Source: PVC group bacterium
GTDB lineage: Bacteria; Auribacterota; Erginobacteria; Erginobacterales; Erginobacteraceae
Reading direction: 5' to 3'
DNA length: 25,520 bases
NCBI GenBank assembly: GCA_043804695.1
Contig: JAZDIV010000083.1
Coordinates: 1 to 25,520 of the forward strand
In this document: one piece after another, positions 1,750 to 25,520 of the stretch
How positions within the stretch are numbered: position 1 is the stretch's first letter
How the letters are laid out: each line of letters starts with the position of its first letter
Position numbers and translations under genes: made by a program
Notes under the pieces: model-generated
What the model was told of the DNA's origin: nothing
Seen by the model: the letters and a program-made list of their open reading frames with translations, nothing else
The model's database searches: none

Positions 1750-1750
1750 G

Positions 1751-1880
1751 AAATCCTAAATCCTAATTTCCTTGATCCTAAAATTGGGAAATTCTAAATT
1801 CTATTTTTCTAAATCCTAAAATTAAAATCCTAAATCCTAATTCCCTAAATCCTAAAACTATAAATTCTAAATCCTATTTA
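1751..1880 (+). repeat. AT-rich tandem heptamer array (AAATCCT/AAATTCT) with a 36-38 nt higher-order period
   Basis: Read directly; higher-order units start at 1751, 1789, 1825 and 1862. Confidence 0.9.
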
Positions 1881-1882
1881 AA

Positions 1883-2242: not shown

Positions 2243-2274
2243 TTTAGGATTTAGAAAAATAGAATTTAGGATTT
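2243..2274 (-). repeat. Inverted copy of part of the upstream heptamer array
   Basis: 2243-2269 is the exact reverse complement of 1794-1820 (27 bp); extends to 32 bp with one G-U pair. Confidence 0.9.
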
Positions 2275-2296
2275 TTATTTCAAGGTATTGTTTATA

Positions 2297-3547
2297 ATGA
2301 CTGAACCGGCTATCTCTCTCAAGAACGTCTCTAAGAAATTTCCGATCTACGATAGTCCGCTCCAGCGTTTGCAGGAAGCTCTCCGGGGGGGGAGGAGGCG
2401 GTATCACCGCGAATTCTGGGCCCTCCGGGATATCAATCTGGAGGTGCCTTCCGGCGTCACACTGGGAATCCTGGGGCAGAACGGCTCCGGCAAAACCACC
2501 ATCCTCCAGCTGATGGCCGGCATCATGGAACCCACCCTGGGAACAGTCTCCGTCCGGGGAAGGGTCTCGACCATCCTCGAACTGGGGGCCGGGTTCAACC
2601 CCGATTTCACCGGCCGCGAGAACGCGTTTCTGAGCGGAATCATCCTGGGGCTCTCCCCGGGCGAGATCAAGGCCAGGATGGACGAGATTATTTCCTTCGC
2701 CGAGATCGGCGAGTTCATCGACCAGCCGGTCAAGACCTATTCCAGCGGGATGTACGTCCGCCTGGCCTTCGCGGTCGCGGTCACCCTGGACCCCGATATC
2801 CTGTTGATCGACGAGGTCCTGGCGGTGGGCGACGCCTATTTCCAGCACAAATGCACGCGGAAGATCCGGGACTTCCAGGAGCAGGGGAAGACCCTGGTCT
2901 ACGTCACCCATGACATCGAGAGCGTGCGGAACATCTGCCATCAGGCAATGATCCTGGATTATTCCCGGCTCCTGGCCCGGGGGGAGCCGGGGGAGATCGC
3001 GGACCAGTACCTGGCCCTGATCCAGGGGCGCGATGATGAGCGTTCTTCCGGGAAGGCGGCCCCGGCCCGGCATCGCCCGTCGGATTACAGCCGGTACGGG
3101 ACCGGGGAGGCCGAGATTTCTTCCATCGAACTGCTGGACGGAAAGGGGGACCCGAATACCTGCTTCCGGAGCGGAGAGGAGTTTTCCATCCGGTTCCACG
3201 TTTCTTTTAACGCGGATGTGAAACAGTTCGTGCTCGGCAATATCTTCAGGAACAGATTCGGCTTGAACATCTTCGGGACCAATACCGACTGGCACGGCCT
3301 GCCGGCGGAAAACTTCCGGAAGGGAGATCGGTGCGTCGTCGTCTTCCGCCACCGCGCCGACTTTGCCGCCGGGACGTACTCAATCAACCCCGCCGCCTCC
3401 TCCGTCGCCGGCGCCAACGCCTACCGCACGCTGGACTGGATCAACAACGCCGCCATCATCCGGATCGACAATCCCCGCCGGATGGAGGGGTATGTCGGTC
3501 TCCCGACCCGGATTGAGATTGAAAGGGAATCGACAAACGGTTACTAA
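2297..3547 (+). CDS. wzt: Polysaccharide ABC transporter ATP-binding protein with Wzt C-terminal domain
   Basis: Walker A GQNGSGKTT, signature YSSGMYVRLAF, Walker B ILLIDEVLAVGD, H-loop VTHD, then RYGTGEAEISSIEL Wzt_C-like domain. ATG 2297 preferred over TTG 2288. Confidence 0.93.
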   Translation: MTEPAISLKNVSKKFPIYDSPLQRLQEALRGGRRRYHREFWALRDINLEVPSGVTLGILGQNGSGKTTILQLMAGIMEPTLGTVSVRGRVSTILELGAGFNPDFTGRENAFLSGIILGLSPGEIKARMDEIISFAEIGEFIDQPVKTYSSGMYVRLAFAVAVTLDPDILLIDEVLAVGDAYFQHKCTRKIRDFQEQGKTLVYVTHDIESVRNICHQAMILDYSRLLARGEPGEIADQYLALIQGRDDERSSGKAAPARHRPSDYSRYGTGEAEISSIELLDGKGDPNTCFRSGEEFSIRFHVSFNADVKQFVLGNIFRNRFGLNIFGTNTDWHGLPAENFRKGDRCVVVFRHRADFAAGTYSINPAASSVAGANAYRTLDWINNAAIIRIDNPRRMEGYVGLPTRIEIERESTNGY

Positions 3548-3575
3548 TGCCTTGAGACAAACAAGCCCTAAGTCA

Positions 3576-4934
3576 ATGATGCTGATTGTATTATCAGCAT
3601 CTCTCGTTCTGGGGATTGCCTACATCATTGTTATTCCTCCCTGGCAATCACCCGATGAGCCAACCCATTTTGAGTACGCAAAAGTCCTGGCTCTCGGCGC
3701 CGCGCCCTGGGCACCTCTTCCCAGCCCTGACCTGCAGGAGAAGATCATCGTTTCGCTCGATCGCCACGATTACTGGCGATATGTCCAGGAAGAGAGACCG
3801 TCAACGCTTCCGGCTACCTTCCGAGAGACGCCGTTTTTATTTTCCGCTCCAACCCAGATCGGGAAAAACCCTCCCCTCTATTACCTTCTGGCTTCCCTGG
3901 TCCTGCGGTTATCCCCCAGCCTATCGGTGGAGACCGAACTCTACCGGCTGCGGATACTTTCACTCCTCTTTACCATTCTGACCGTCGGACTGGTCGGGGC
4001 CGTCGCCGCCGAGATTTTCGGGAGTTCCTCTCCTGTCTGTCCGGCTGCCGCCGGCATTGTCGCTTTTCTCCCCCAATTTATGGTAATCGGGACCTCGGTC
4101 AGTCCGGACCCCTGCATCAACCTCTTCGGCGCGGCTTCGATCTATTTAGTACTCAGATTCCAGAGGACAGGCTTTACCTTGTCCCGGACAATGTTTCTCC
4201 TGCTCTGGTATGGTCTGGGGCTGCTGGTTAATTACAAATGTTTGATCCTCCTTTCGGCACTGCCGGGAGTTATGATTATTCATTTCTTTCTCCATCGGCC
4301 AAGGACTCTCTCCTTTAAAAAGGTGATGATCTGGTTCGGAGTAATCTTCCTGGTTTTCCTGGTGGCCTATTCCGGGATGGTCTGGTACTACTCGGCAATT
4401 GCCCGGGTCTTCATTGTCAGAGTCAATATTCTATACTCAATGCTCGCTTCTTTCCTGCGGGGGGACACGTATTTCCGCGCGGGTTTCTGGCACTGGTTTC
4501 ACGCCGAACTCTTCAAAAGCTTCTGGCTGAAGTATGGTTGGTTAAAGTTTGAACTGCCGCCGCCCGTTTACCTGGTTCTCAAAATTGCCAGTCTCTTCTC
4601 TTTAGCGGGGATCGGACTCTTTCTGGGTCAGTGGATAGTGACCCGGGGAAAAATCCCGAGTCAGACGCGGGAGGCTATTATAACCCTGCTTTTCTTTGCT
4701 GCGGTCACACTGGGGGCCTATTATTTATTCTGGGGTCTCAGGGGAGAGGATACCACTACTCAGGGGAGACATCTCTTTTTAGTGATGCCCGCCTGGTCGA
4801 TTCTCTTTATCTTCGGTTGGAGCCGTTTTTTTCCCGCCCGCTGGATAACGGGGGTCAGTTACGGGTTACTGGCCGGTTTCATCCTGCTGGACGCGGTGTC
4901 AATCCTGTTTTATATCATTCCCACGTTTTCTTAG
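3576..4934 (+). CDS. Polytopic membrane protein, DUF2142 / GT-C glycosyltransferase-like
   Basis: PPWQSPDEPTHFEY, NPPLYYLL and late QGRHLF motifs; about 10 or more TM segments. Start is uncertain (ATG 3576 or TTG 3552); the track start at 3363 overlaps wzt. Confidence 0.75.
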   Translation: MMLIVLSASLVLGIAYIIVIPPWQSPDEPTHFEYAKVLALGAAPWAPLPSPDLQEKIIVSLDRHDYWRYVQEERPSTLPATFRETPFLFSAPTQIGKNPPLYYLLASLVLRLSPSLSVETELYRLRILSLLFTILTVGLVGAVAAEIFGSSSPVCPAAAGIVAFLPQFMVIGTSVSPDPCINLFGAASIYLVLRFQRTGFTLSRTMFLLLWYGLGLLVNYKCLILLSALPGVMIIHFFLHRPRTLSFKKVMIWFGVIFLVFLVAYSGMVWYYSAIARVFIVRVNILYSMLASFLRGDTYFRAGFWHWFHAELFKSFWLKYGWLKFELPPPVYLVLKIASLFSLAGIGLFLGQWIVTRGKIPSQTREAIITLLFFAAVTLGAYYLFWGLRGEDTTTQGRHLFLVMPAWSILFIFGWSRFFPARWITGVSYGLLAGFILLDAVSILFYIIPTFS

Positions 4935-10402: not shown

Positions 10403-11776
10403 ATGAAGAAACACATTGCCGTTGTTTTTTTGCTGATTGCCGGACTGCTGTCGGCTGGGGCAATTTCCGCCTCGGCCGGGATCTTGAGTGTCCCGGTGCT
10501 TTACCAGCAGCAGGAGCAATGGTGCTGGGCGGCCTCCTGCCAGATGATTCTCTCTTACTACGGTTACTCCTCCACCCAGTGTGACATGGCCAACTGGTGC
10601 TTTTATCAGACTTCCTGCTGCAACAACGTGATCTGGCCGTCCGGGACCGGCCCCTCCTGCAACCAGTCGAACTGGATCTTCGGGTACGACCGGGACATGC
10701 AGGATGTCCTGGTGGCATGGGGATCGATTTATGGTACCGGCGTATCCTCGTATCTGCTCTGGTCGACACTCACCTCCGAGATCGACTCCAGCCGGCCCTT
10801 TGTGATCGGGTTCTCCTGGAGCGGTGGAGGGGGGCACGCCCTGGTCGGCCGGGGATACTCCGGTGGTTATGTCTATTACAACGACCCCTGGCCCGGCAAC
10901 GGATATATGTACGCGATCTATAGCTGGATGTGTTACGGCTGCTCGGAAGGCGTCTGCCACACCTGGGACGAGAGCTACTGTCTCACCACCAGCCCGGCCG
11001 CGGCTGCCGACCGCGCCCCGCTCCAGTTGTTCGCGGGGGATTTTAATGGCGATGCGTATTCCGACATCGCCGTTTTCCGGCCCTCTTCCGGCCTCTGGTC
11101 GGTGCGGGGGGTGACCCGGACTTATTTCGGCCGGAGCGGCGATATCCCGGTCCCGGCCGATTTTAACGGGGACAGCCGGGCCGATCTGGCCATCTTCCGC
11201 CCCTCCTCCGGGCTCTGGTCGGTGAAGGGGATTACCCGGTTTTATTTCGGCCGGAGCGGCGATATTCCGATCCCGATGCACTACAAGGCGGGCGGCAACA
11301 CGGCCTGCGTCTTCCGTCCCTCTGCCGGACTTTGGGCGACCCGGGGGGGGAACCGGGTATATTTCGGAAGAAGCGGCGATAACCCGGTGCCCGGCCCCTA
11401 TGCCAGCCGCGACGGGCGAAGAGGATCCGTCAACTACGCCATCTTCCGCCCCTCCACCGGCCTCTGGTCGATCAAGGGCTTGACCCGGTTGTATTTCGGC
11501 CGGAGCGGGGATACCCCGGTCCCGGGGGCGTACACCACAGGTTCTACCGACACCTGGAAACCGGCAATCTTCCGAGCCGCCAGCGGCCTCTGGTCGGTGC
11601 GCGGGGTGACCCGGGCCTACTTCGGCCGGAGCGGGGATACCCCGGTCCCGGCCGATTACACCGGCTACTGGGGCGACGAGATGGCGGTCTTCCGGGCCAG
11701 CTCCGGCCTCTGGTCGATCCGGGGCGGGAACCGCTATTATTTCGGCCGTTCCGGGGACCTCCCGGCGACGAGATAG
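10403..11776 (+). CDS. Secreted papain-fold cysteine protease (C39-like/C70 type) with 6 C-terminal FG-GAP-like repeats
   Basis: Signal peptide; LSVPVLYQQQEQWCWAASCQM (Gln/Cys), GGHALVGRGY (His), YYNDPW (Asp); repeats 11036-11773. Confidence 0.88.
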   Translation: MKKHIAVVFLLIAGLLSAGAISASAGILSVPVLYQQQEQWCWAASCQMILSYYGYSSTQCDMANWCFYQTSCCNNVIWPSGTGPSCNQSNWIFGYDRDMQDVLVAWGSIYGTGVSSYLLWSTLTSEIDSSRPFVIGFSWSGGGGHALVGRGYSGGYVYYNDPWPGNGYMYAIYSWMCYGCSEGVCHTWDESYCLTTSPAAAADRAPLQLFAGDFNGDAYSDIAVFRPSSGLWSVRGVTRTYFGRSGDIPVPADFNGDSRADLAIFRPSSGLWSVKGITRFYFGRSGDIPIPMHYKAGGNTACVFRPSAGLWATRGGNRVYFGRSGDNPVPGPYASRDGRRGSVNYAIFRPSTGLWSIKGLTRLYFGRSGDTPVPGAYTTGSTDTWKPAIFRAASGLWSVRGVTRAYFGRSGDTPVPADYTGYWGDEMAVFRASSGLWSIRGGNRYYFGRSGDLPATR

Positions 11777-11864
11777 AGAATAGGGAATGGGGATTGGGGA
11801 ATAGGGAATAGCCGCCAATCCCCAATCCCCAATCCCTAATCCCCATTCCCCATCCCCTCTTCCC
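11777..11864. repeat. Inverted heptamer arrays (GGAATAG/GGATTGG x5, CCGC, CAATCCC-like x7), able to form a hairpin
   Basis: Read directly after the stop codon at 11776. Confidence 0.88.
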
Positions 11865-11917
11865 AAGCTGTCTTTTCCGGTGTATATTTATAAATTGAAA
11901 GACTGGAGAGGCATAGG

Positions 11918-13345
11918 ATGAAAGGCAGTCATAAAGCAACAACAGTAGCTCTTTTCATCATGTTCCTCCCTCCCGCTGCAATCACTGCCCGGGCCGACGC
12001 CTTGCTCCCCTTCGAACCGGATGACACTCTGGAAGAGATCCGCTACAAGATCGATTATAACGGGTACGATTTCACCGTTGGCAGTAACTGGGTCTTTGAC
12101 CTGCCGGAAAACGAGAAAACGGCCTTCTTCAGCCGCCGCGCACCTCTCTATCCACGGCGCGGGGGCGCCGGTGACGAGATCGGGCCCCTGGGCGATATCC
12201 TCGGCACCTTCGATCTTCCATCCAGCTTCGACTGGCGGAGCTACAACGGGCACAGCTATATCGGCCCCATCAGGGACCAGGGAAACTGCGGATCCTGCTA
12301 CGCCTTCGCGGCGGCGGCCGCCGCCGAAGGGACCTACAACCGGGCCAACGGTCTCTACGACGGGGACCGGGCTGACTTCTCCGAGGCTTTCATCGCCTTC
12401 TGCCTCTCCGACCACTACAGCCAGCACTTCGACGGGTGCGACGGGGCCGACTACGACTACTACGAACTGGAGGCCCTCGTACAGTACGGAATCTGCGGCG
12501 AGACGGTTTATCCCTATTCCGACCACGACCAGTCCTGTCCGCTCTCGCCATATCCTTCTCTCCAGCAATTCCAGGCCTGGCATCGGATCCCCTGCAACGA
12601 TATCGAAGCGATCAAGTCCGCGATCATGACCTACGGGGTGGTCGACGCGGCGGTGGAAGTGGGGAGCGCGTTCGAGAGCTACAGAGGAGGGATTTACCAG
12701 GACACCAACACCAGCTGTGGTGCCAGCCCCTGCTACTACACCGATACCAACCACGCCATCTCACTGGTAGGCTGGAACGACAACGGGGGAAACGGATACT
12801 GGATCCTCCGGAACTCCTGGGGGACGAGCTGGGGGGAAAGCGGCTACATGCGGATCAGCTATACCTCCGCGTTCGTCTCCTGCGAGGCCGCCTACCTGGT
12901 GTACGGGGAAACACCGCCGCCCGCTCCGACGCCGCCCCCGGTCCCGACCCCGCCGCCGGGGCCCACCCCGGCGCCCTATCTCCCGGGGGATTACAATGGC
13001 GACGGCACGGCCGACCTGGCCGTCTTCCGGCCCTCAACCGGTCTCTGGGCGGTTAAGAGCGTCACCCGGGCTTACTACGGTGCTTCGGGTGACACCCCGG
13101 TTTCCGGGGACTACAACGGAGACCGCCGGTCCGACATCGCCATCTTCCGCCCTGCCAGCGGCCTCTGGGCGATCCGGGGGATCGCCCGGCTCTACTTCGG
13201 GAACAGTTGGGCCGTCCCGGCCTCGGGTGACTACACGGGGGCCGGGAAATACACCCCGGCTTTTTTCCGGAACGGATTATGGAAAATAAGGAACGTCACC
13301 GATGTCTATTTCGGGCGGACAGGAGATAGCCCGATGGCGAGGTAA
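11918..13345 (+). CDS. Secreted C1 (papain family) peptidase, Pro/Thr linker, 3 FG-GAP-like repeats
   Basis: LPSSFDWR, DQGNCGSCYAF, NHAISLVGW, RNSWGTSWGESGYMRI; repeats 12986-13342. Confidence 0.93.
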   Translation: MKGSHKATTVALFIMFLPPAAITARADALLPFEPDDTLEEIRYKIDYNGYDFTVGSNWVFDLPENEKTAFFSRRAPLYPRRGGAGDEIGPLGDILGTFDLPSSFDWRSYNGHSYIGPIRDQGNCGSCYAFAAAAAAEGTYNRANGLYDGDRADFSEAFIAFCLSDHYSQHFDGCDGADYDYYELEALVQYGICGETVYPYSDHDQSCPLSPYPSLQQFQAWHRIPCNDIEAIKSAIMTYGVVDAAVEVGSAFESYRGGIYQDTNTSCGASPCYYTDTNHAISLVGWNDNGGNGYWILRNSWGTSWGESGYMRISYTSAFVSCEAAYLVYGETPPPAPTPPPVPTPPPGPTPAPYLPGDYNGDGTADLAVFRPSTGLWAVKSVTRAYYGASGDTPVSGDYNGDRRSDIAIFRPASGLWAIRGIARLYFGNSWAVPASGDYTGAGKYTPAFFRNGLWKIRNVTDVYFGRTGDSPMAR

Positions 13346-13353
13346 ACAAAGAA

Positions 13354-13383
13354 CGCATAGCGCATAGAGCAGAGTGCATAGAG
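13354..13383 (+). repeat. Short heptamer array CGCATAG CGCATAG AGCAGAG TGCATAG
   Basis: Read directly. Confidence 0.6.
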
Positions 13384-13400
13384 ACTGGGGAGCTAACTTA

Positions 13401-13455
13401 CTGTTTCGGAATTCCAATAACCGGATAAAATCCGGTTATTGAAATTCCGAAACAG
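13401..13455. repeat. 26-bp inverted repeat (one mismatch, 3-nt loop); possible terminator or stabilising hairpin
   Basis: CTGTTTCGGAATTCCAATAACCGGAT-AAA-ATCCGGTTATTGAAATTCCGAAACAG. Confidence 0.8.
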
Positions 13456-13603
13456 ACGAAAAAGCAACCAGGGAAAAATATTTTGTTTAGTTTTGTTACG
13501 CTAAAGTCTTACCGTTGTTTATTGAGCAGTTGCATTCAAACTAATTCTTGGATAATCATCGGTCTGATACACGTTTAAAAGGTACAATTCACTCCAATTC
13601 TTC

Positions 13604-13630
13604 TAAATTAGCGCCGGAGGCGCTAATTTA
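13604..13630. repeat. Small palindromic element upstream of the GTG at 13652
   Basis: TAAATTAGCGCC-GGA-GGCGCTAATTTA. Confidence 0.75.
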
Positions 13631-13651
13631 CTGCTGAAAACGGCGAAGACA

Positions 13652-15457
13652 GTGAAACGTTCTCATATAATAATAATAGTGGTATCGTGGGTGCTCATGA
13701 TCACGGCAATGCCCCGGGCACAAGCTCGTGACTATCCCCTGATGCGGCCGGACCCGGCCACCAAGCGGTCCTGGATAGACTCCTACGAGGCCGCGCCCCG
13801 GGCCTACATCGACCCCAATCTCCAGCCGCGCCGGGGTTCGCTAAGCCTTCTCAGCCACCTCCAGTACACCCCCTCCCAGCGGGACCAGGACTCCTGCGGC
13901 AACTGCTGGGCCTGGGCGGGGACCGGCTGCCTGGCCATCGCCCTTGATGTGCAGGAGAGCATCAAGGACCGCCTCTCCATCCAGTACCTCAACAACTGCG
14001 GGACCGAGATCTCCTGCTGTCAAGGTGGCTGGCTATACAACGTGGTTAATTTTTACGGGAGCGTGAAAAAGGCCGTTCCCTGGTCAAACACCGGGGCATC
14101 CTGGCAGGACGGAGGTGGATCGTGCAATTCAACCTGCAGTAACGTCTCAACCTCGCCCAGTTATGCCATCTCCTCCACATCCTATTCGAGCGTGACGACC
14201 CACAACGTCGGCCAGACCACCGCCGTCAATAACCTGAAGAACGTTCTCAGCCAGGGGAAGGCGATCTGGTTCGGCTTCTTCATGTCCACCAACGCCGACT
14301 GGACCAGCTTTGAGAATTTCTGGGATCAGCAGGCTGAAACGGCGGTCTGGGATTTCGACCCGACCTGCGGCAAGACGCCGGACGCCGGCACGGGGGGGCA
14401 CGCGGTGCTCTGTGTCGGCTACAACGACGATGATTCCCAGAACAGCTACTGGATCATGCTCAACTCCTGGGGGACCACCCTCGGGCGGCCCAACGGTCTC
14501 TTCCGTGTCGCCATGGACATGGACTACGATTGCGTGGAAGGCGGCGGCTGGGGCGACTACAACCATTATTGGCAGACCATCGATGTGACCTTTGGCGACG
14601 TCGGCGCGCCGACCCCCGTTGTCAACCCGACCCCGGTCACCGGTCCGACGCCGCCCCCCGGCGGGACCGGAGACACGTTCGGGTCTCCGCTCATTATCCC
14701 GGCCAACTACCGCGCCGGCGGGAGCAATGCCGGGTTCACCGATGACTACCAGGTGTATGACGGCTGGATCAGCGGGGAGACGGGGCCCGACCTGGTCTAC
14801 CGCTTCACCACTTCCGGCGCCGGGGGGCTTGTTATTCATCTGACCGGACTCTCGGAGGACCTCGATGTATTTCTCTGCGACGGTCCCTCGGTCAATTCGG
14901 TCTCTGCCTCCAGTTACGGACCGGGCACATCGTCGGAGCAGATCGAGATCGCCAGCGCCCCCGCCGGGACCTATTACCTGGTAATTGACGGCTGGTGGGG
15001 CGCGGTGAGTTCATACGCATTGAGTATCGCCTCCGATTTCGCCGCCCCCACACCGGTTCCGGGCCCGACACCCGTCCCGGGGACTGTCTCCCATGCCGGT
15101 GATTATAATGGGGACGGATACGACGACATCGCCATTTTCCGGTCTTCCTGCGGTCTCTGGGCGATCCGGGGGGTGACCCGGGCCTACTTCGGAAAAAGCG
15201 GCGACCTGCCCGTCCCGGGAGATTATGACGGCGACGGCCGCTACGAAGTGACCGTATTCCGGAACAGCTCGGCTCTCTGGGCGATCCGGGGGATCACCCG
15301 GATCTACTTCGGGAAGACCGGCGACCGCCCGGTGCCGAGCGATTATGACGGGAACGGCACCTTTGAGCCGGCCTTTTTCCGAAAAGGCCTCTGGGCCGCC
15401 CGGGGGGTGACCAGGGCTTATTTCGGTATCGCCGGCGATCTTCCGGCCATCCGCTGA
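13652..15457 (+). CDS. Secreted C1-family peptidase, PPC-like beta-sandwich, Pro/Thr linkers, 3 FG-GAP-like repeats
   Basis: Signal peptide; DQDSCGNCWAW, GHAVLCVGY, LNSWG; DLDVFL...EQIEIASAPAGTYYLVIDG (PPC-like); repeats 15098-15454. Confidence 0.9.
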   Translation: MKRSHIIIIVVSWVLMITAMPRAQARDYPLMRPDPATKRSWIDSYEAAPRAYIDPNLQPRRGSLSLLSHLQYTPSQRDQDSCGNCWAWAGTGCLAIALDVQESIKDRLSIQYLNNCGTEISCCQGGWLYNVVNFYGSVKKAVPWSNTGASWQDGGGSCNSTCSNVSTSPSYAISSTSYSSVTTHNVGQTTAVNNLKNVLSQGKAIWFGFFMSTNADWTSFENFWDQQAETAVWDFDPTCGKTPDAGTGGHAVLCVGYNDDDSQNSYWIMLNSWGTTLGRPNGLFRVAMDMDYDCVEGGGWGDYNHYWQTIDVTFGDVGAPTPVVNPTPVTGPTPPPGGTGDTFGSPLIIPANYRAGGSNAGFTDDYQVYDGWISGETGPDLVYRFTTSGAGGLVIHLTGLSEDLDVFLCDGPSVNSVSASSYGPGTSSEQIEIASAPAGTYYLVIDGWWGAVSSYALSIASDFAAPTPVPGPTPVPGTVSHAGDYNGDGYDDIAIFRSSCGLWAIRGVTRAYFGKSGDLPVPGDYDGDGRYEVTVFRNSSALWAIRGITRIYFGKTGDRPVPSDYDGNGTFEPAFFRKGLWAARGVTRAYFGIAGDLPAIR

Positions 15458-15502
15458 CCTCCTTTCTTCCAGCGGTTCTTTGTGCGTTATCTGTACTTTA
15501 CC

Positions 15503-15531
15503 TTGACAGGCGGTAATTATGTGAGTATACT
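15503..15531 (+). promoter_or_regulatory. Near-consensus sigma70 promoter
   Basis: TTGACA-17 nt-TATACT; conserved in the paralogous block at 22193-22222. Confidence 0.75.
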
Positions 15532-15639
15532 TTAATATGCGAATTGCTTTTTGACATATTGCCACGTATTTTAAAATGCAGGAAAGGCAAGACGTGATAT
15601 TATTTTTTATAATAACCTCTTCGAGTAAGGTATAGCTAA

Positions 15640-18600
15640 ATGACAGCGCCATATTTTCGCCGCCTGGGGATATCGTTTTTTCTTTGTTGCAGTCTTTTCC
15701 TCTCTCCGGCCTTTTCCCCCGCCCAGCAATTAAAGGTCATCGTCCCCGCCGGGAGCAAGGCCGGTCTGGCCTCCACCGGCAGTCTGATCGCCGACCGCGG
15801 ATCATACCTTGTTTACCAGGTTCCGGTTTCCACTTTGAAAAGCCTGGCTCGAACCCCCGGTTTTCAACCGCGCCCCGACTTCGACCGGATCGAGCTCAAT
15901 CGGGTGGCAATCGATACCGCCGCCGGAGCACCCGCGGTCCCGGCGCGCCTCGCCGCGGCCGAGGCGGGTGATCGGTTGATGCTGGTCCAGTTTTCCGCCC
16001 CACCGATTGATTCCGACCTGGCCCTGGTGGCGGGGGCGGGGGCGGAGATCGTCCAGTACGTTCCCCAGAACGCTTACATCATCTGGGTCCCCGCCGGCGC
16101 GGCGGGCTCGATGGAGAAGGCGGCCCTCTCTCCCGTGGTCCAGTACTACGGGCCCTACCACCCTTATTACGCCCTTTCCCCCCGGCTGGACGGAGCGGAA
16201 GACCAGATCGCCGTCACCGTCCAGTTCTACAACTACGGGGAAGAGGCGCGGACCGATGCCGAGAAGGTGGCCGCCGGGGCGGCCCGCGTGATCATGAAGC
16301 CGACCGAGGCGCTGGGCGGACTCTATATCAACGTCCGGGTGGTCGTCCCCGCCGCCGACCTATCCTCTTTAGCCTCCCTCCCCGGCGTGATCACGGTCGA
16401 GCCTTACGTTGAGCCGGAGCTCTACGGCGAGCGGCAGGACCAGGTGATCGCCCTGAACTTGAACGTAGGCGAGACCGGCCCCTCCGGCCCGGGATATCTC
16501 GCCTGGCTTGGTTTATTCGGCTTTCCCACCGCCCCCGGCGAGTATCCGATCATCGACATCGTCGATGACGGATTCGACACGGGGAACGCCGCCAACCCCG
16601 GCAACTCCGAGTTCCGCGAACTCAACAACCCGGCGCTCTCTTCACGCTGCGTATACGCGATTATCGCCGCCGGGGCATCGGGCTTCGGTCCCGAGGGGGT
16701 GGACGGGCACGGGACCATCAACTGCTCGATCGTCGGCGGTTACAACGACGGCGTGGGGTCGCCCGCCAACGTCGATTCCCAGGGCTACCACTGGGGGCTC
16801 GGTGTCTCCCCCTACGGCCGGATCGCCTCGACCAGGATCTTCGGTCCTTCCGGCTGGTCTTACCCCGACGAGGACCTGATGGTGAGCAATCAATACGCCG
16901 CCGGTGTCCGGACCACCTCCAACTCCTGGGGCGCCAACGTCTACGGAGCCTACGACGCCGACGCCCAGGCCTACGACCGCCGGACCCGGGACGCCCAGTC
17001 CGGAACACCGGGCAACCAGGAAATGCTCTTCGTCTTCGCCGCCGGTAACGCCGGTTCCGGCGCCGGTTCGGTGGGAACACCGGGAACGGCCAAAAACGTG
17101 ATCACCGTGGGGGCGAGCGAGAACGAGGACATCGCATTGAACTACACCGATGGTTGCGGGGTGGGACCCTCCGGTGCGAACAACATCCAGGACATCATCA
17201 ATTTCTCCAGCCGCGGCCCCTGCGACGACGGACGGGTCAAGCCCGAGATCGTCGCCCCCGGGACCCACATCCACGGTGCCGCCTCCTACTACGCGGGTTA
17301 TACCGGCTACAGCGTTTGCGACAAGTACAACCCCGCCGGGCAGACCAAGTACGCCGAGTCATCGGGGACGAGCCACTCGACCCCGGCGATCGCCGGCGGC
17401 CTCTCCCTCCTCGTCAACTACCTCTCCCGGGGGCACGGGATCGGCGATCCCAGCCCGGCCCTGCGCAAGGCGTGCATCATCAACTCCTCCTACTTCCTGA
17501 CCGGCGTGTCCGCCAACGACGATCTCCCCAGCAACAGCCAGGGTTTCGGAATGATCAACCTCGATCTGGCCTTCGATCAGACGGTCAACCGCATCTTCGT
17601 CGATCAGACCGAGGTCCTCCACAACTCCGGCGACACCTACCAGATCTCCTTCTCGATCAACAACAGCTTGGAGCCCTTCCGGGCCGCGCTCGCCTGGACC
17701 GATGAGCCGGGACCTACCTCGGGCGCCGCCTATGTTAACGATCTGGATCTGGAGGTGGACGTGGGCGGGGTTACGTATCTGGGCAATAACTTCACCCTCG
17801 GTGTCTCCCAGAGCGGCGGGTCCGCCGACCCTAGAAACAACACCGAGTGCGTTTTCCTCCCCGCCGGCAGCAGCGGGAGTGTCACCGTGACCGTCCGGGG
17901 AACCACCATCGCCGGCGACGGGGTACCCGGCAACGGCGACGCCACCGACCAGGACTTCGCCCTTGCCATCTACAACGCCCTGACCTCCACCCCCACCCCC
18001 ACCCCGGAAGGCTACAAGACGCCGACTCCAACCCCGACAACCACCCCCACGCCGGAAGGGTATAAAACCGTCACCCCCACACCCTCGGTTACGCCTACGG
18101 CAACGCCCTCTCCATACGATAAAATATTTGAGTACGACGTGGAAACGCCGACCGGGGATAGCCAGTGTCTGGGAGTGGAATTCGACGGTGTCAATTACTG
18201 GATAACCGGAGGGAACTCCGGTTCCGATCCTAATAAGTTATACAAACTCGACAACACCTGCAGCAGTGTTATTGCCGCCTACAACCAGCCCGCTCATTCC
18301 ACCGGCTGGGGCTGGAGGGATCTCGCTTTCGACGGCGCCTATCTCTATGCTTCCGTAACCGGCAATATTGATCAGATTAATCCCGCCACCGGTTCATGGA
18401 CCGGGGTCAGTATCCCGGGCCCGCTTACCCCGAATCGGGGATTGGCTTACGACCCGGCCACGGATCATTTCTGGACCGCAAACTTTAGCTCCGACATCTA
18501 TGAGATTGACCGGAGCGGGACCGTCATCAACTCCTACGGTAACGCGAACTCTATCTACGGATTGGCCTGGGATGATGTCAGTCAGGACGGCCCCTGGCTG

Positions 18601-21447
18601 TGGGCCTATTCCCAGGATGGGCCGCCGTATGTACTTATATCCCAGTTCGATCCCTCGAGCGGAGTCTATACTGGTGTCACCCACCTGGGTGTATATCATA
18701 ACTACAGCGGCGATATGGCCGGTGGAGCCACATTTGCCCGGATGGGAGCGAAAGCGGTGTTTATCGGATTAACCCAGGATACACCCGATCTCATATTCGG
18801 ATTGGGTGTTGGGCCCGCCGTCACAGTCACCCCCACCCCGGAAGGCTACAAGACGCCGACTCCAACCCCGACAACCACGCTCACGCCGGAGGGCTACAAA
18901 ACGCCGACCCCGACCGCCACCCCTTCGCCGGACTATTGCAGCGCGAGCGGCGGGTGCGACGAGTATATCACACGCGTACAATTCAACACGATCGACAATT
19001 CCAGCGGATGCGGAGGGTATGCCGATTACACGGCGCTCTCAACCGTCATCACTCGTGAGGCCGCCTACGGCATCACCGTCACCAATCCGGTCCTCTACAC
19101 CGGCGATGCGTGCGATGTGTGGGTGGACTGGAACCGGAACCGGAGTTTCTCCGATGCCGGGGAAAGCACGACGCTCAGCGGCGGCCCGGCTGTGTTCACC
19201 GGCACGATCACGGGCCCCGCGGGCGCGCTGCTGGGTGAGACTCGTCTGCGGATCAGGTTGCGGTACTATGAAGATGTCGAACCCTGCGGGGATTTCACCT
19301 ACGGCGAAGTCGAGGACTATACCGTGATAGTGGTGCCGTTGGTCACCCCCACCCCCACCCCGGAAGGCTACAAGACTCCGACTCCAACCCCGACAACCAC
19401 GCCCACGCCGGAGGGCTACAAAACGCCGACCCCGACCGCCACCCCTTCGCCGGGTTATTGCAGCGCGAGCGGCGGTTGCGACGAGTATATCGCACGCGTG
19501 CAATTCAACATGATCGACAATTCCAGCGGATGCGAAGGGTATGCCGATTACACGGCGCTTTCGACCGTCATCAGTCGTGAGGCCGCCTACGGCATCACCG
19601 TCACCAATCCGGTTCTCTACACCGGCGATGCGTGCGATGTGTGGGTGGACTGGAACCAGAACCGGAGTTTCTACGATGCCGGGGAGAGTACGACGCTCAA
19701 CGGCGGCCCGAATGTGTTCACCGGCACGATCACGGGCCCGGCGGGCGCGCTGCTGAATGAGACTCGTCTGCGGATCAGGTTGCGGTACTATGAAGATGTC
19801 GAACCCTGCGGGGATTTCACCTACGGCGAAGTCGAGGACTATACTGTGATAGTGGTGCCGTTGGTCACCCCCACCCCGGAAGGCTACAAGACGCCGACTC
19901 CAACCCCGACAACCACGCCCACGCCATCGGTAACACCAACACCAACTGTGACGCCCACGCCGTCCGTCACGCCAACACCGATTACGCCCACGCCGTACGT
20001 GACACCAACGCCCACGCCCTCGGTGACACCAATACCGATACCCAGTGCGACCCCGACGCCCGAGTACTGTCATCCCGCCCTGGAGATTGCCGACCTGGAA
20101 GATCTGTGGCTGGCGCAGACCCGAGCTTCCGTCGGTGACGGATGGAGGTACAACATCACCAAGGCGGCCCCGGCTGCCGATCTGTACGGGTACATTGAGG
20201 ACAATGCCGGCACGTTTGTCGACCAGAGCGCGTATGCCTGCCAGCCGGTGGCGGTGCGAATTGCCCGGGTAAATGAGGACGTAAATATTCTGGAAGGGGA
20301 CTACCTGAGGGTGACCTTCGGCGGCGGGACGGAAGTGAATGTTTATCCTCCGGCTTTAAGCGGTAATATAGATACTTACTATTATATCGGCGCCGACGGG
20401 AGCACCTATGTTGACCGCTGGCTCTGCGAGCCGGCCAAAGCGGTACCGACGCCGACACTGACGGCCACCCCCACACCAACGCCAACTCCCACTCCCACAG
20501 TACCGCCGACCCCGGCGCCTACCGTATCTCCGACACCGGCGCCCACCGTACCGCCGACCCCGGCGCCCACCGCACCGCCGACCCCGGCGCCTACCGTACC
20601 TCCGACCCCGGCGCCCACCGCACCTCCGACCCCGGCGCCCACCGTATCTCCGACCCCGGCGCCGAGCCCCACCCCCACCTGTGGTCCGATCGTGCCCCTG
20701 GAAAGGTTAGTTATCGAATCCGGAGATTATGACGGCGATGGCACCGATGACGTCGCCATCTTCCGGGAGAGTTCCGGTTTGTGGGCGATCAGAGGAGTAT
20801 CCCGGGTCTATTTCGGAGGCGTTTCCGACCAGCCGGTTCCCGACGACTATGACGGAGACGGGGTAATAGAAATTGCCGTCTTCCGCGGAAGTTCCGGCAG
20901 TTGGACGATTCGGGGCTTGACCAGGGTTTATTTCGGAACCACTGGCGATATTCCGGTCCCCGGTGATTACGACGGTAACGGAAGCGCCGATATCGGAACC
21001 TTCCGGGATTCCTCCGGTCTCTGGATGATCAGAGATGTGACCCGGGTAAATTTCGGAAAAGCTGATGATTGGCCGGTGCCCGGTGATTATGATGGAGACG
21101 GCACCGGGGAAATCGGTATCTTCCGGCCCGGGTGCGGTCTCTGGGCGATCCGGGGAGTATTCCGGCTTTACTTCGGCAAGGATGAGGACTGGCCCCGCCC
21201 GGGCGACTATGACGGAGACGGGACCTGGAACGTGGGTATCTTCCGCCGCCCGGTCGGTTTGTGGGCTCTCCGCGGCATTACCCGCCTCTACTATGGCTGT
21301 TGTCTTGACTGGCCGGTCCCGGCCGATTACGACGGCAGCGGCACCGAAGACACCGGCATCTTCCGCGGAAGCTCCGGTCTCTGGGCGATAAAAGGAGTCT
21401 CAAGAGCCTACTTCGGCACCTCAGGGGATATTCCGGTGACGAGGTAG
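15640..21447 (+). CDS. Giant secreted S8 subtilase: prodomain, S8 core with jelly-roll domain, beta-propeller-like domain, 2 GEVED domains, unknown domain, Pro/Thr linkers, 6 FG-GAP-like repeats
   Basis: Triad IVDDGFD / DGHGT / GTSHSTP, oxyanion FAAGN; LAWTD..NDLDLEV; FDG..W / LAYD / LAWD blades (about 18115-18810); YGEVEDY twice; repeats 20722-21444. Confidence 0.93.
18827..19925 (+). repeat. Tandem 522-bp linker+GEVED duplication, with two more copies at 23299-23820 and 24421-24936
   Basis: Near-identical DNA; GEVED coding starts at 18931, 19453, 23410 and 24529. Confidence 0.95.
20494..20661 (+). repeat. Seven 24-nt tandem units encoding PT(V/A)(P/S)PTPA
   Basis: Read directly in the linker before the C-terminal module. 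Confidence 0.9.
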
Positions 21448-21600
21448 GGGGGAAAGTTATCCCCCTGCCGGGGAAATTAGGTTTGGGGAATGCCAGACGA
21501 TCCACCTGAACACTTCATTCCAACCCCTGACATTCTCTGTACGGGGTTTTAATACACAATGTGAGAAGGGAGAGAAAAGTTAAGAAATGATCCCCTTCTG

Positions 21601-21702
21601 TCTACCCCGGCGCCCACGGTGCCGACGATGACGACGACACTGACGCCGATCGCCATCCCCACGGCAGTCGCCACCCGGACCCCGGCGCCCCGCCCCACCC
21701 CC
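21601..21702 (+). pseudogene. Orphan degenerate Pro/Thr linker fragment
   Basis: Translates to STPAPTVPTMTTTLTPIAIPTAVATRTPAPRPTP; in-frame TGA at 21562 and no proper start; GC-rich patch in an AT-rich spacer. Confidence 0.55.
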
Positions 21703-21948
21703 AATCTCAGAAGGATCATCCGCCTATCCACCATCGTCCGCCGCGTACACTGTGAGCCTTACTTACAAATCGAATTGGATTATATGAGATAAGACTAAAT
21801 TGTGCCAACAGTTGTTGTTACTTGTAAACTTTAATTGACACTTTCATCTAACAATAGCCGTGTCAGGAGGATTGGATTTTTTTAAAAAAAGTTGAATCTC
21901 GTTGACTACTAAAATATTACGCAAACACACACCCGAGAAATCTAAGTG

Positions 21949-21964
21949 TGGCACGGTTTTTGCA
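21949..21964 (+). promoter_or_regulatory. sigma54 -24/-12 promoter motif
   Basis: TGGCACGGTTTTTGCA matches TGGCACG-N4-TTGCW with GG-N10-GC spacing. Confidence 0.65.
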
Positions 21965-22192
21965 TATAAATAAGCCACAATGCTATAGTAAATTCCATCA
22001 AAATCCAAGAATATAGTCGGAGTGCCCATCAATAAGGAAAACCTGGAAGCTATTGGGATATGAGGAAGCTTGAGTTTAAAAAAAATCTAAGGAAACATGT
22101 TCACGTTTCTCTGGAGTGACCAGCGCTCCGCAACATGATGAACTGATTCACCTGCCGGGTAAACCGGCAGGGATCTTTGTGCGTATTTTACC

Positions 22193-22222
22193 TTGACTTA
22201 GCACTAATTATGTGATTATACT
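22193..22222 (+). promoter_or_regulatory. sigma70 promoter paralogous to 15503-15531
   Basis: TTGACT-18 nt-TATACT in a homologous context. Confidence 0.65.
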
Positions 22223-22350
22223 TTAATACAGACGTAAATTCATTTTATTCCGTGCTTTTTGACCAAATATGGTTGCCCATATTTTTTAAAATGCAGGAAA
22301 GGCAAGACGTGATATTATTTATAATAATCTCAAGGACAAGGAGATAGCTA

Positions 22351-25300
22351 ATGACAGCGCCATATTTTCGCCGCCTGTGGATATCGTTTTTTATTTGTTG
22401 CGGCCTTTTCCTCTTTCCGGCTTTTTCCCGCGCCCAGTCTCCATTCGGCTCTACTGCAGCCTGGGGGGAAGCGGCTAAACTGGCCCAGATCAGAAGTGCG
22501 ATTGCGGAGAAAGATTTTCACTGGACAGCCCGAGATTATGGAAGAGAGTTCGCGCTCGGCGCCATCATTAAAGAGGAAGAGAACGGGATTGAGCCCCCGA
22601 CGATGGAGCAGGTGGAATCGCTGCCGGACTCGGTTGACTGGCGCAGTAACGGCGGCAATTTTGTCTCCCCGGTGAAAAATCAGGCCAGCTGCGGCTCCTG
22701 CTGGGCCTTCGCCGCCGTCGGTTCTCTGGAATCCCTGGTCTGCATCTCGCACAATACCCCGGGCCAGTTTCTGGATCTTGCCGAGCAGATCCTGGTCTCC
22801 TGCTGTACAGGAAATTACGGCTGCAGTGGCGGCTACATGGATATCACGGCCCAGTTCATGCGGGATGAAGGCACGTATCTGGAAACCTGTTTCCCTTACA
22901 CGGCCACCAACAATAACTGCGGCAATGCCTGCGCCGGATGGGGAGCCCTGGCTTACAAAATTGACGGCTTTTCCTTTGTTCCCCGTACCGTGGCCACGCT
23001 TAAATCAGCGGTCTATAGCTATGGCCCGACCCAGGTCGCTTTTTATGTTTACTCCGACTTCCAGTCCTACAGCGGCGGGGTCTATGAGTACGCTTGGGGT
23101 TCTTATTTGGGCGGGCATGCCGTGCTGCTGATCGGCTATCAGGACACCCCCGGTCAGTACGGCGGCGGTTATTTCATCGTCAAAAACAGCTGGGGAACTT
23201 CCTGGGGTGAGAGCGGATTTTTCCGGATCGGCTACAGCCAGGTCACCAACTCGGTGACTTTCGGGAGCAGCTCCTACGCCTATACCTACCTGCCTCCCAC
23301 CACCCCCACCCCCACCCCGGAAGACTACAAGACGCCGACTCCAACCCCGACAACCACGCCCACGCCGGAGGGCTACAAAACGGCGACCCCGACCGCCACC
23401 CCTTTGCCGAGCTATTGCAGCGCGAGCGGCGGTTGCGACGAGTATATCGCACGCGTGCAATTCAACACGATCGACAATTCCAGCGGATGCGGAGGGTATG
23501 CCGATTACACGGCGCTCTCGACCGTCATCAGTAGTGAGACCGCCTACGGCATCACCGTCACCAATCCGGTCCTCTACACCGGCGATGCGTGCGATGTGTG
23601 GGTGGACTGGAACCGGAACGGGAGTTTCTCCGATGCCGGGGAGAGCACGACGCTCAGCGGCGGCCCGGCTGTGTTCACCGGCACAATCACGAGCCCCGCG
23701 GGAGCGCCGCTGGGGGAGACCCGTCTGCGGATCAGGTTGCGGTACTATGAAAATGTCGAACCCTGCGGGGATTTCACTTACGGCGAAGTCGAGGACTATA
23801 CCGTGATAGTGGTGTCGTTGATCACCCTCACCCCGACACCGGAGGGTTACCACACCCCCTCACCGTCGCCCACACCGGTTACCACCCCTACCCCGAGGAC
23901 AGTTACAAAATATCCAATCGACGATTCTTATGTAAGGAGCTGGACCCCGGATACTGTTTATGGCGCGGCTGGGGCCTTCACAGTGAATCCAAGAACAGCA
24001 GATATTTGCAGGGTATATATTAAATTTGATTTATCCGACATCCCTTCCGGGGAGACAATATCGTCGGCAATATTAAGGTATTATTATTTTGGTTGGTGGG
24101 AAGCGGACCCTGCCGGCAGGATAAATGATATGTATAAAATAACCGGCAATTGGGATGAAGGCACCTTAACCTGGAATAACAAGCCAGGCTATGATATGTC
24201 GGTATGTGGGTCTTATACCGTGCCGTATTCTTTCGGGTGGATAGAAACTGACGTTACCCAATATGTTCAGGATAAAGTGAATGGGGAAATGGACTACGGA
24301 ATTTTGGTAAAGGACCGTAATGAACAGCCGCTAGGGTTGAATACAAATCCTATAATGTACTCAAAAGAATATAATGGTTTAAACCCGGAGCTCGTAATCG
24401 AATTTTCAATGCCAGCGTCGACCCCCACCCCCACCCCGGAAGGCTACACGACGCCGACTCCACCCCCGACAACCACGCCCACGCCGGAGGGCTATAAAAC
24501 GGCGACCCCGACCGCCACCCCTTTGCCGAACTATTGCAGCGCGAGTGGCGAGTACGACGAGTATATCGCCCGCGTGCAATTCAACACGATCGACAATTCC
24601 AGCGGACGCGAAGGGTATGCCGATTACACGGCGTTCTCAACCGTCGTCACTCGTGAAGCCGCCTACGGCATCACCGTCACCAATCCGGTCCCCTGGGACG
24701 GCGATGCGTGCGATGTGTGGGTGGACTGGAACCAGAACGGGAGTTTCTACGATGCCGGGGAGAGCACGACGCTCAGCGGCGGCCCGGGTGTGTTCACCGG
24801 CACGATCACGGGCCCGGCGGGCGCGCTACTGGGGGAGACCCGTCTGCGGATCAGGTTGCGGTACTATCAAGATGTCGAACCCTGCGGGGATTTCACCTAC
24901 GGCGAAGTCGAGGACTATACCGTGATAGTGGTACCGTCGGACGTGTTAACGGTGGCGCCCGATGAGGCGTTTGAGTCCGCGGGCACTCCGGGCGGGCCCT
25001 TTGACCCGGCATCGAAGACCTACACGCTGACGAACCTGGGCGGGGAGAGCCTCGACTGGACCGCCGGGGCGACGGCGGATTGGCTGACGGTGGCGCCCGG
25101 CAGCGGGGGTCTGGCCGCGGGGGCCTCGACGGAGGTCGAGGTGAGCCTGAACGCAAACGCCGGCGCGCTGATACCGGGAGACTATGAGGATATCGTCACG
25201 TTTGCCAACATTTCTTCCGGCTTTACCCGGACGCGCGGCGTTTCTCTGACCGTGATCGCCATTCCCGGCCAGATTGCGGTGGAAGACTCGATCCCGCCGA

Positions 25301-25520
25301 CTGACGATCACGAGATGCCCTTCGGCGAGGTGATTGTCGGCACTTCCCGCACCGAGCAGGTGACGGTGCACAACACCGACCCGACGTATAACCTGGTGGT
25401 GGACGGGATCGAATTGACGGGCGGCCATTCCCCGGCCTCGCTTTCAGCGCCGGGAACGGAGGAAGATAGCCTGGACACGAACTCGCGCAAGGGAAAGACA
25501 AAATTGCCGATCGAGTCGGA
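22351..25520 (+). CDS. Large secreted C1 peptidase with GEVED, DNRLRE/CBM96-like, GEVED, BACON-like and further Ig-like domains; runs off the window end
   Basis: Not in the ORF track. AAGGAG SD, then [122 protein letters not shown]. No stop found to 25520. Confidence 0.93.
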   Translation, partial: MTAPYFRRLWISFFICCGLFLFPAFSRAQSPFGSTAAWGEAAKLAQIRSAIAEKDFHWTARDYGREFALGAIIKEEENGIEPPTMEQVESLPDSVDWRSNGGNFVSPVKNQASCGSCWAFAAVGSLESLVCISHNTPGQFLDLAEQILVSCCTGNYGCSGGYMDITAQFMRDEGTYLETCFPYTATNNNCGNACAGWGALAYKIDGFSFVPRTVATLKSAVYSYGPTQVAFYVYSDFQSYSGGVYEYAWGSYLGGHAVLLIGYQDTPGQYGGGYFIVKNSWGTSWGESGFFRIGYSQVTNSVTFGSSSYAYTYLPPTTPTPTPEDYKTPTPTPTTTPTPEGYKTATPTATPLPSYCSASGGCDEYIARVQFNTIDNSSGCGGYADYTALSTVISSETAYGITVTNPVLYTGDACDVWVDWNRNGSFSDAGESTTLSGGPAVFTGTITSPAGAPLGETRLRIRLRYYENVEPCGDFTYGEVEDYTVIVVSLITLTPTPEGYHTPSPSPTPVTTPTPRTVTKYPIDDSYVRSWTPDTVYGAAGAFTVNPRTADICRVYIKFDLSDIPSGETISSAILRYYYFGWWEADPAGRINDMYKITGNWDEGTLTWNNKPGYDMSVCGSYTVPYSFGWIETDVTQYVQDKVNGEMDYGILVKDRNEQPLGLNTNPIMYSKEYNGLNPELVIEFSMPASTPTPTPEGYTTPTPPPTTTPTPEGYKTATPTATPLPNYCSASGEYDEYIARVQFNTIDNSSGREGYADYTAFSTVVTREAAYGITVTNPVPWDGDACDVWVDWNQNGSFYDAGESTTLSGGPGVFTGTITGPAGALLGETRLRIRLRYYQDVEPCGDFTYGEVEDYTVIVVPSDVLTVAPDEAFESAGTPGGPFDPASKTYTLTNLGGESLDWTAGATADWLTVAPGSGGLAAGASTEVEVSLNANAGALIPGDYEDIVTFANISSGFTRTRGVSLTVIAIPGQIAVEDSIPPTDDHEMPFGEVIVGTSRTEQVTVHNTDPTYNLVVDGIELTGGHSPASLSAPGTEEDSLDTNSRKGKTKLPIES

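Follow-up and report, generated by a model that had tools for sequence, protein, structure and literature searches.

Probable recent copying of a linker and GEVED unit in two secreted protease genes of an Auribacterota genome, and a linker peptide motif that is probably under selection

Two adjacent genes for secreted proteases, P0001 and P0002, in the draft genome of a PVC group bacterium (Auribacterota; Erginobacteria; Erginobacterales; Erginobacteraceae; GenBank assembly GCA_043804695.1, contig JAZDIV010000083.1) carry an almost identical block of about 60 nucleotides (nt) six times, each time between domains. The block encodes 20 residues of a Pro/Thr linker with the peptide PEGYKTP. The question that this locus raises is whether the linker DNA is kept as a joint for the shuffling of domains, whether the encoded peptide is kept, or whether the blocks are the trace of recent copying. 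The window, that is, the whole stretch of DNA analysed, is 25,520 nt long and is the entire contig C83 of the genome (G000; 2.97 Mb, 155 contigs, 88% completeness). The reading that we consider probable has two layers: at the level of DNA, a recently copied unit made up of linker plus GEVED domain, and at the level of protein, a selected peptide motif in the linkers. Within the order, comparisons covered a sample of 14 genomes (G000 to G013, G000 being the source genome and G001 a member of the same genus), and outside it 47 genomes from the rest of the phylum; evidence for rearrangement comes from assembled genomes, and architectures were compared between genera and families. Ca. Erginobacter belongs to Ca. 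Auribacterota according to the available part of the Auribacterota paper (PMC9324843), and linkers are not mentioned in that part. No relevant literature on linker recombination was found. The two genes and the linker copies within them are as follows.

15640..21447, + strand: P0001, open reading frame (ORF) with translation, 1935 amino acids (aa)
17989..18114, + strand: linker L0, 42 residues, between S8 and an unassigned domain, with GEVED on neither side
18823..19344, + strand: cassette G1, linker at 18823-18930 with two PEGYKTP, GEVED at 18931-19344
19345..19866, + strand: cassette G2, in tandem with G1, GEVED at 19453-19866
19867..19926, + strand: a third unit cut short after its first 60 nt, which encode 20 residues and pass into ordinary Pro/Thr linker
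22351..25518, + strand: P0002, 3' end open, continuing on contig C98
23302..23823, + strand: cassette G3, linker with PEDYKTP and PEGYKTA, GEVED at 23410-23823
23824..23886, + strand: linker TLTPTPEGYHTPSPSPTPVTT, PEGYHTP at 23839, motif kept in codons unlike those of the 60-nt block
24421..24942, + strand: cassette G4, linker with PEGYTTP and PEGYKTA, GEVED at 24529-24942

A preliminary description of this DNA had reported near-identical linker DNA at domain junctions, and this is borne out. The core 20-mer CCGGAAGGCTACAAGACGCC has nine matches in the window at up to three mismatches, each of them on the + strand, where shuffled sequences would give 0.01, and a repeat search returns a 108-nt family of six copies (at 17988, 18822, 19344, 19860, 23301 and 24420) with 68-84% gapless identity to the first. 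By BLASTN, 19864-19925 is 96.7-98.4% identical to the copies at 17994, 18826, 23307 and 24426 over a core of 60-62 nt. The same description had taken the linker to be the repeat, with one EGYK in each. The recurrence stands, but every linker preceding GEVED carries two PEGYK motifs, and the homology extends beyond the linker through the complete GEVED (512-590 nt at 92-94%, BLASTN). The unit is 522 nt long and consists of a 36-codon (108-nt) Pro/Thr linker with two PEGYKTP motifs followed by a 138-codon (414-nt) GEVED. G000 has five copies of it, four in the window and one on contig C119, which match over about 510-640 nt at 91-94% (BLASTN). G1 and G2 form a tandem pair with a period of 522 nt (18820-19409 against 19342-19925, 94.2% over 590 nt), and the dispersed copies of P0002 (23301-23858 and 24421-24940) are 92-94% identical to this pair. 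G2 and the truncated unit start behind it are together homologous to C119:6901-6263 (from 19374-20012, 91% over 639 nt). All of these repeats are direct, which is the only orientation that the search covered, and the spacings between copies (834, 522 and 516 nt) are all divisible by 3. The genome-wide BLASTN that had been proposed as a check also finds more diverged linker copies on contigs C39, C124, C134 and C80 (75-86% DNA identity), with exact 20-mers common to the window block and the linkers on C39 and C124. The linker is thus not confined to the two protease genes. The degenerate PEGYHTP copy is present as noted before, at 23839 and in different codons, and P[ED][GD]Y.T sites in the window total 13.

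P0001 encodes, in order, a signal peptide, an S8 subtilase, L0, an unassigned 236-aa domain, G1, G2, the partial linker block with its Pro/Thr linker, a DUF7257-like domain (21 bits, under the family cut-off), a Pro/Ala/Thr linker with a 24-nt period (tandem array at 20494-20663) and six FG-GAP-like repeats of 40 aa. P0002 encodes a signal peptide, a C1 papain-like peptidase, G3, the PEGYHTP linker, CBM96, G4 and BACON/Ig-like domains. Pfam recovers most of the domain labels given earlier: S8 (115.7 bits) and two GEVED in P0001, and C1, two GEVED, CBM96 (formerly "DNRLRE") and BACON in P0002. The label "propeller" finds no such backing, as 18115-18822 has no Pfam match at E up to 1. GEVED (PF20009) scores 119.5 bits in P0001 and 136.7 bits in P0002 against a cut-off of 24.4, with two stretches per gene, and the GEVEDY motif is kept in all five GEVED copies. 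The final 141 nt of the window (25380-25520) are identical to C98:1-141, and P0002 therefore runs on into C98, a contig that carries a long Pro/Thr/Arg-rich stretch.

The near identity of the blocks could mean that the linker DNA is itself selected, as an in-frame homology joint for the swapping of cassettes, which would be an intron-free form of exon shuffling. The six near-identical blocks stand at successive domain junctions in one frame, which speaks for such a joint, as do the exact 20-mers shared with C39 and C124; the other motif-bearing Pro/Thr linkers of G000, at only 75-86% DNA identity, speak against it. Compared with the GEVED that adjoins it, the linker shows no better conservation. 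Among the four window cassettes there are 11 variable sites in the 36 linker codons (3 purely synonymous) and 54 in the 138 GEVED codons (14 purely synonymous). Set against the synonymous sites available, this is 3 of about 32 in the linker and 14 of about 98 in GEVED (Fisher p 0.56), so the special conservation of synonymous positions that had been claimed for the linker is not upheld. Pairwise synonymous divergence (dS, Nei-Gojobori) amounts to 0.03-0.07 in the linker, from 1-2 synonymous differences per pair, and to 0.10-0.15 in GEVED, from 9-13 such differences. Since synonymous conservation is not specific to the linker, the identity of the blocks would be explained by recent copying and exchange between copies. 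The two PEGYK motifs of one linker moreover differ in codons (GAA GGC TAC AAG and GAG GGC TAC AAA), while each position retains its own codons across the unit copies; this therefore reflects descent of the whole unit and not a selected DNA word. On these comparisons the 60-nt block does not appear to be conserved on its own account, and is read here as the 5' part of the 522-nt unit.

The boundaries of homology nevertheless lie in linkers, and domain architectures differ between genera and families. The 5' ends of the unit copies are at the first linker codons. The segment shared with C119 starts in mid-linker and ends 150 nt into the next Pro/Thr linker, so that both of its ends are inside linkers, and the homology of G3 ends within the following linker. 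The homology of G4 stops at the end of GEVED, and no linker follows. L0, the copy without GEVED, has a sharp boundary: it shows 2-5 differences from the cassette linkers in its first 66 nt (92-97% identity) and 14-15 in the next 42 nt (64-67%; Fisher p 8e-6 to 6e-4), which points to a short conversion or crossover tract ending inside the linker. The C119 copy shows the opposite break relative to the others, with a diverged head and a similar tail (p 0.002-0.013). When the four-gamete test is applied to the five cassettes, 154 of the 253 informative site pairs prove incompatible, with seven different bipartitions, which suggests that sequence has been exchanged between cassette copies. S8 orthologues in G005, G011 and G003, plus 23 metagenome relatives, have different sets of C-terminal domains after the ...DQDFALxxYN end of S8, so that the architectures are not invariant. 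A metagenome scan with the S8 C-terminus gave 24 relatives, the best at 66% identity, and no strain of the G000 species was among them.

Judged from these boundaries, domains are added as in-frame cassettes with ends at or inside Pro/Thr linkers, and the shuffling of cassettes appears to be real. This part of the preliminary description stands, in that the ends of the tandem pair and of the C119 segment, and the break in L0, all fall at or inside linkers; the part that held the DNA to be selected as a joint is not supported. Two features would place the ends of the unit at or inside linkers. The linkers repeat one another in direct orientation over 20-60 nt, a length that would suffice for gene conversion or unequal crossing-over, and working proteins would result only from in-frame junctions in unstructured linkers. 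Linkers would then serve as joints in practice, simply through being repeats, and the copies may continue to exchange sequence. Unequal crossing-over between the 14-residue stretches that flank GEVED would account for the composite linker and for the spacings of 522 and 516 nt.

A dedicated joint gains something from the differing architectures of relatives, from the linker-only copy at 17989 and from the ends of the C119 segment. It also gains from the pooled proportion of synonymous differences (pS), which at 0.047 in the linker is about half that in GEVED (0.106); this trend, weak and non-significant as it is, tells against plain copying, and on counts this tiny it might reflect some extra homogenisation or constraint of linker DNA. 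However, most S8 relatives with varied C-terminal domains lack Pro/Thr linkers and are equally variable, and across the order the motif is written in all synonymous codons. No recombinase or reverse transcriptase, as would be expected of shufflons, diversity-generating retroelements or invertible cassettes, was found by Pfam among 13 ORFs of the window (both large genes and 11 others picked at 150 aa or more). In addition, P0001 and P0002 share a module whose boundary is not a linker.

15493..15726 and 22183-22437, + strand: shared 5' module of P0001 and P0002 (promoter-like region, leader, signal peptide)

This module is about 255 nt long and 78% identical overall, rising to 92% over 88 nt of the signal peptide (24 residues). 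Its promoter-like part reads TTGAC...TATACT, and the homology breaks off where cleavage of the signal peptide is predicted (...AQ). Beyond these two, G000 gave no further copy of the shared signal peptide. Taken together, these points make selection of the linker DNA as a joint distinctly improbable. Directly upstream of the module in P0002 lies an element of about 42 nt (22136-22180) with a G+C hairpin (CCTGCCGG-GTAAA-CCGGCAGG), of which copies at 85-96% identity are found by BLASTN on at least 13 other contigs.

The copying of linker plus GEVED appears to have been recent. In their GEVED part the five G000 copies are 92.2-95.7% identical at the nucleotide level among themselves. Identity drops to 80-82% with the one copy that G001 has, and to 64-67% with the copies of G011 and G013. 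The G000 copies are thus closer to one another than to orthologues in the nearest relatives, as in a repeat family that evolves in concert. This type of GEVED is found in five of the 14 order genomes and in more than one copy only in G000 (five) and G005 (three). In G011 and G013 it lies in a gene with a metallo-beta-lactamase (MBL) fold, followed by a linker with three P-x-GY[KR]TP, GEVED, a PT linker and FG-GAP repeats, and the C119 gene of G000, also of MBL fold, has the same layout. We infer that GEVED originally resided in the MBL-fold gene and that its presence in the protease genes goes back to a recent burst at the level of the species. The unit would have multiplied very recently in the G000 species, by one tandem duplication in the S8 gene and two copies in the C1 gene, with the copy in the C119 MBL-fold gene at the position shared with relatives. 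A search for orthologues of P0002 with its CBM96 segment in G001, G003, G005, G007 and G011 gave only matches at 35-38% identity, in G001. Pairs of GEVED copies differ by 10-23 non-synonymous and 9-10 synonymous codon differences (dN/dS, the ratio of non-synonymous to synonymous divergence, about 0.4-0.8), which suggests that the duplicated GEVED binding domains are under relaxed or diversifying selection.

Some observations do not sit well with recent copying and exchange. The tree leaves the G000 copies and that of G001 in a fork that it does not resolve, so formal monophyly of the G000 copies is not obtained, and because of this the recent burst rests on branch lengths and identities. In the permutation test, incompatible sites do not cluster significantly (p 0.07), and recurrent mutation, or chimeric short-read assembly of repeats that are 93% identical, could inflate the apparent mosaicism. 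In its strong form the latter would make the cassettes themselves a product of wrong joins or false duplications in the metagenome assembly. For this speaks the draft state of the genome (155 contigs, 88% completeness). Between copies that are 92-96% identical, chimeras could also form wherever identical stretches exceed the k-mer length, and these would mimic mosaicism. Yet four copies lie within one contig between unique sequences and differ at 5-8% of sites, the frame is open in every copy, and a related arrangement of PEGY linker before GEVED occurs independently in G001, G011 and G013. An assembly artefact is therefore hardly credible as the source of the cassettes.

The second layer concerns the peptide. 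In a six-frame search of G000, TPEGY[KHR]TP is found in linkers on contigs C39, C80 (in a protein of 5896 aa), C119 (two), C124 and C134, in other codons than those of the block. A relaxed core yields 27 sites in Pro/Thr context, spread over 12 ORFs, and across 218 Pro/Thr-rich stretches the motif is the sole recurrent aromatic context, with PEGYKTP itself seen nine times. A degenerate DNA pattern for PEGYKTP matches in 13 of the 14 order genomes (all except G004), which span four families, and in none of the 47 others of the phylum; the reversed-pattern control gives 0 in all genomes. Every synonymous codon is used, and therefore it is the peptide that is kept and not the DNA. In a scan of one genome each for 185,579 species with a 10-residue query, 44 matches were obtained in 40 loci. 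About 40 matches are in Pro/Thr linkers, chiefly in metagenome-assembled genomes (MAGs) titled PVC group bacterium, Candidatus Erginobacter occultus or uncultured bacterium, and four are in non-linker contexts (L052, L063, L053 and L054). L053 and L054 are on one MAG contig, where the 10-residue peptide occurs twice after the identical non-linker stretch ITQHITNPNGV.HISPGRIPGFRGF, with stops nearby. Substrings of the peptide, including GYKTPTP, were not found in the literature searched.

The motif is not, it appears, a by-product of possessing Pro/Thr linkers. DNA coding for TPTP[ST]PTP is found in all 14 order genomes and in all six genomes of family f14, and PEGYKTP is found in none of the six. 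G004 has 17 linker hits and 0 motifs, and even the relaxed pattern TP-x-G-[YF]-x-TP has no match in G004 or in the four f14 genomes tested. Orthologous positions keep the motif as well: it follows the MBL domain in G000, G011 and G013, and S8 in G000 (PEGYKTP) and G005 (PVGYRTP). Further such positions are after the repeat domain of the C124 protein, with a look-alike in G001, and before an IDFYYRD domain in the C80 protein and in L025, L050 and L064. Substitutions are conservative at Y/F, K/R/H and T/S, and the residue after the first Pro is free. Within linkers, 24 of the 27 sites are within 12 residues of a linker end, against 23.3 expected under a crude boundary rule that splits linkers at neighbouring motifs. 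Every site is internal, with further linker and then a folded domain behind it. C-terminal sorting signals of the PGF-CTERM or PEP-CTERM kind, which come after Thr/Pro-rich spacers and stand at the extreme C-terminus ahead of a transmembrane helix and basic residues, were considered and ruled out, as the motif is never in that position.

Alternatively, PEGYKTP may have no function and merely mark a family of homologous linkers that was spread by ancestral domain shuffling and persists by copying. The linkers on C39, C124, C134 and C80 can be aligned to the block at 75-86% DNA identity, and therefore at least some of them share descent. Several observations that favour this alternative count at the same time against a selected peptide. 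Decay of the motif is visible in the five fresh copies (PEDYKTP, PEGYTTP, PDGYITA, PEGDTTP), and among these the non-synonymous divergence (dN) of the linker is about equal to its dS; not every copy of the motif is therefore under constraint. The motif is also gained and lost between close relatives, a difference of this kind separating G000 and G001 in the C124-type protein, and G004 has lost it. The phyletic pattern, being that of a single clade, counts as one event. Against a functionless marker stand the exact seven-residue motif in 13 of 14 genomes and four families, where GEVED has diverged to 64-67% nucleotide identity and every synonymous codon is in use, together with its persistence at orthologous sites and the conservative nature of its substitutions. 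On balance a functionless PEGYKTP seems unlikely, and selection on the peptide is considered probable.

If the peptide is selected, the core [E/V/A]-G-[Y/F]-[K/R/H]-[T/S]-P within TPTP would be a short linear motif, shared across one order of Ca. Auribacterota by the Pro/Thr linkers of many multidomain proteins that are secreted. Most likely it would serve as the recognition site of an extracellular enzyme that acts on linkers, by proteolytic processing or by O-glycosylation. That EGYK may be a signal for modification or cleavage, as suggested earlier, would agree with the conservation of the peptide across the order. Papain-type C1 peptidases classically prefer an aromatic residue at P2 and a basic one at P1, and Peptidase_C1 has nine matches in G000, four of them in the window; a processing site would be our first guess and an O-glycosylation sequon our second. 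C1 peptidases are, however, present in 32 of the 61 genomes, including the motif-less G004 and family f14, and the phyletic data therefore give no support to the cleavage idea. Were cleavage nonetheless correct, the C1 peptidases of the neighbouring genes could free catalytic or binding modules from the FG-GAP-type C-terminal domain in a programmed way. In its most specific form the proposal is that PEGYKTP (core G-[YF]-[KRH]-[TS]-P in TPTP) is a previously undescribed, order-specific signal read outside the cytoplasm, either as the sole cleavable site in otherwise protease-resistant linkers or as the acceptor sequon of a new linker glycosylation, with its DNA incidentally supplying short homologies for the duplication and movement of cassettes. 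We offer this tentatively, and as a whole it is rather unlikely.

A candidate enzyme for glycosylation was sought in the window, where a GT-C/PMT-like membrane glycosyltransferase is encoded in a group of envelope-related genes (window 940-4934).

940-1749: Wzm
2288-3547: Wzt
3363-4934: GT-C/PMT-like membrane glycosyltransferase

The enzyme matches PF02366 at 29 bits, has no NCBIfam match, and has no sequence match to a solved structure in the PDB. Homologues are found in 14 of 14 order genomes and in none of the 47 from the rest of the phylum. As the motif's enzyme it was set aside, and is only a lead, since G004 keeps an open copy (split at contig ends) and yet is without the motif. The gene order Wzm, Wzt, GT-C, a protein of 634 aa without assigned function, nitroreductase and LpxD recurs in G005 and G007 and, over the stretch examined, in G002, and this neighbourhood fits envelope glycan work by the enzyme equally well. 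Docking of the FG-GAP-like C-terminal domain on the linker motif was also considered; the complex prediction returned "no support", which is no evidence either way.

P0001 and P0002 end a row of five consecutive genes for secreted peptidases (10403-25518), which are in order a C39-like peptidase, C1, C1 with PPC, S8 and C1. Four of the five end in the FG-GAP-like domain, and the 3' end of the fifth gene lies beyond the contig. The domain has six 40-aa repeats and ends in ...D(I/L)PVTR (20680-21444, 11024-11773, 12593-13342 and 14705-15454). A PTPTCGP motif precedes it at 20680 and likewise in three relatives. With BLASTN matches to these repeats on more than 40 contigs of G000, it has the look of an anchoring or sorting domain in use across the lineage.

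The new findings are modest: a recent and readable burst of linker plus GEVED into protease genes, and a lineage-specific linker motif. The evidence points to ordinary repeat-driven recombination through linkers, for which a dedicated joint is not needed. The order-restricted motif provides a testable handle on how an uncultured PVC-group lineage may process or decorate its secreted multidomain proteases and binding proteins, and could serve as a sequence marker for the secretome of this lineage in metagenomes.

Several known systems resemble parts of this. Warren et al. are said to have described, in 1986, the Pro-Thr box of the Cellulomonas fimi enzymes CenA and Cex, with its sequence conservation and a shuffling of regions. 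Pro/Thr linkers of this type are sites of glycosylation and of proteolytic clipping, and have long been read as a trace of domain shuffling. As in CenA and Cex, a stereotyped Pro/Thr linker is found here in different secreted hydrolases with domains in different orders; unlike there, it has an embedded EGYK motif that is not Pro/Thr, is confined to one order of Auribacterota, and owes its DNA identity to the copying of a whole unit of linker and domain. In-frame tandem repeats of surface proteins evolve in concert through unequal crossing-over and gene conversion. The cassettes resemble them in being head to tail, in frame, highly identical in nucleotides and apparently mosaic, but here a complete folded domain together with its linker forms the unit, which has moved to a second gene and shares sequence with a third. 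Among glycosylation signals, Bacteroidota use the O-glycosylation motif D-[ST]-[AILVMT], and PglL-type systems use low-complexity acceptor sites. Like these sequons, the present motif is short, lineage-specific and located in unstructured Ser/Thr/Pro-rich stretches of secreted proteins; unlike them, it contains Tyr-Lys in a TPTP context and is known from sequence alone. Finally, in the available part of PMC10952558, GEVED (PF20009) is a module of extracellular multidomain fibrillar adhesins of the CshA family, which are mosaic through domain shuffling. GEVED likewise belongs here to shuffled multidomain extracellular proteins; compared with what that part of the source describes, it is borne by proteases and an MBL-fold enzyme instead of accompanying a CshA_NR2 tip or stalk repeats, and its copying is recent enough (92-96% nucleotide identity) for the ends of the unit and the apparent exchange between copies to be read directly. 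Bacterial domain shuffling would thus have been caught soon after the event, with unit, ends and exchange readable base by base.

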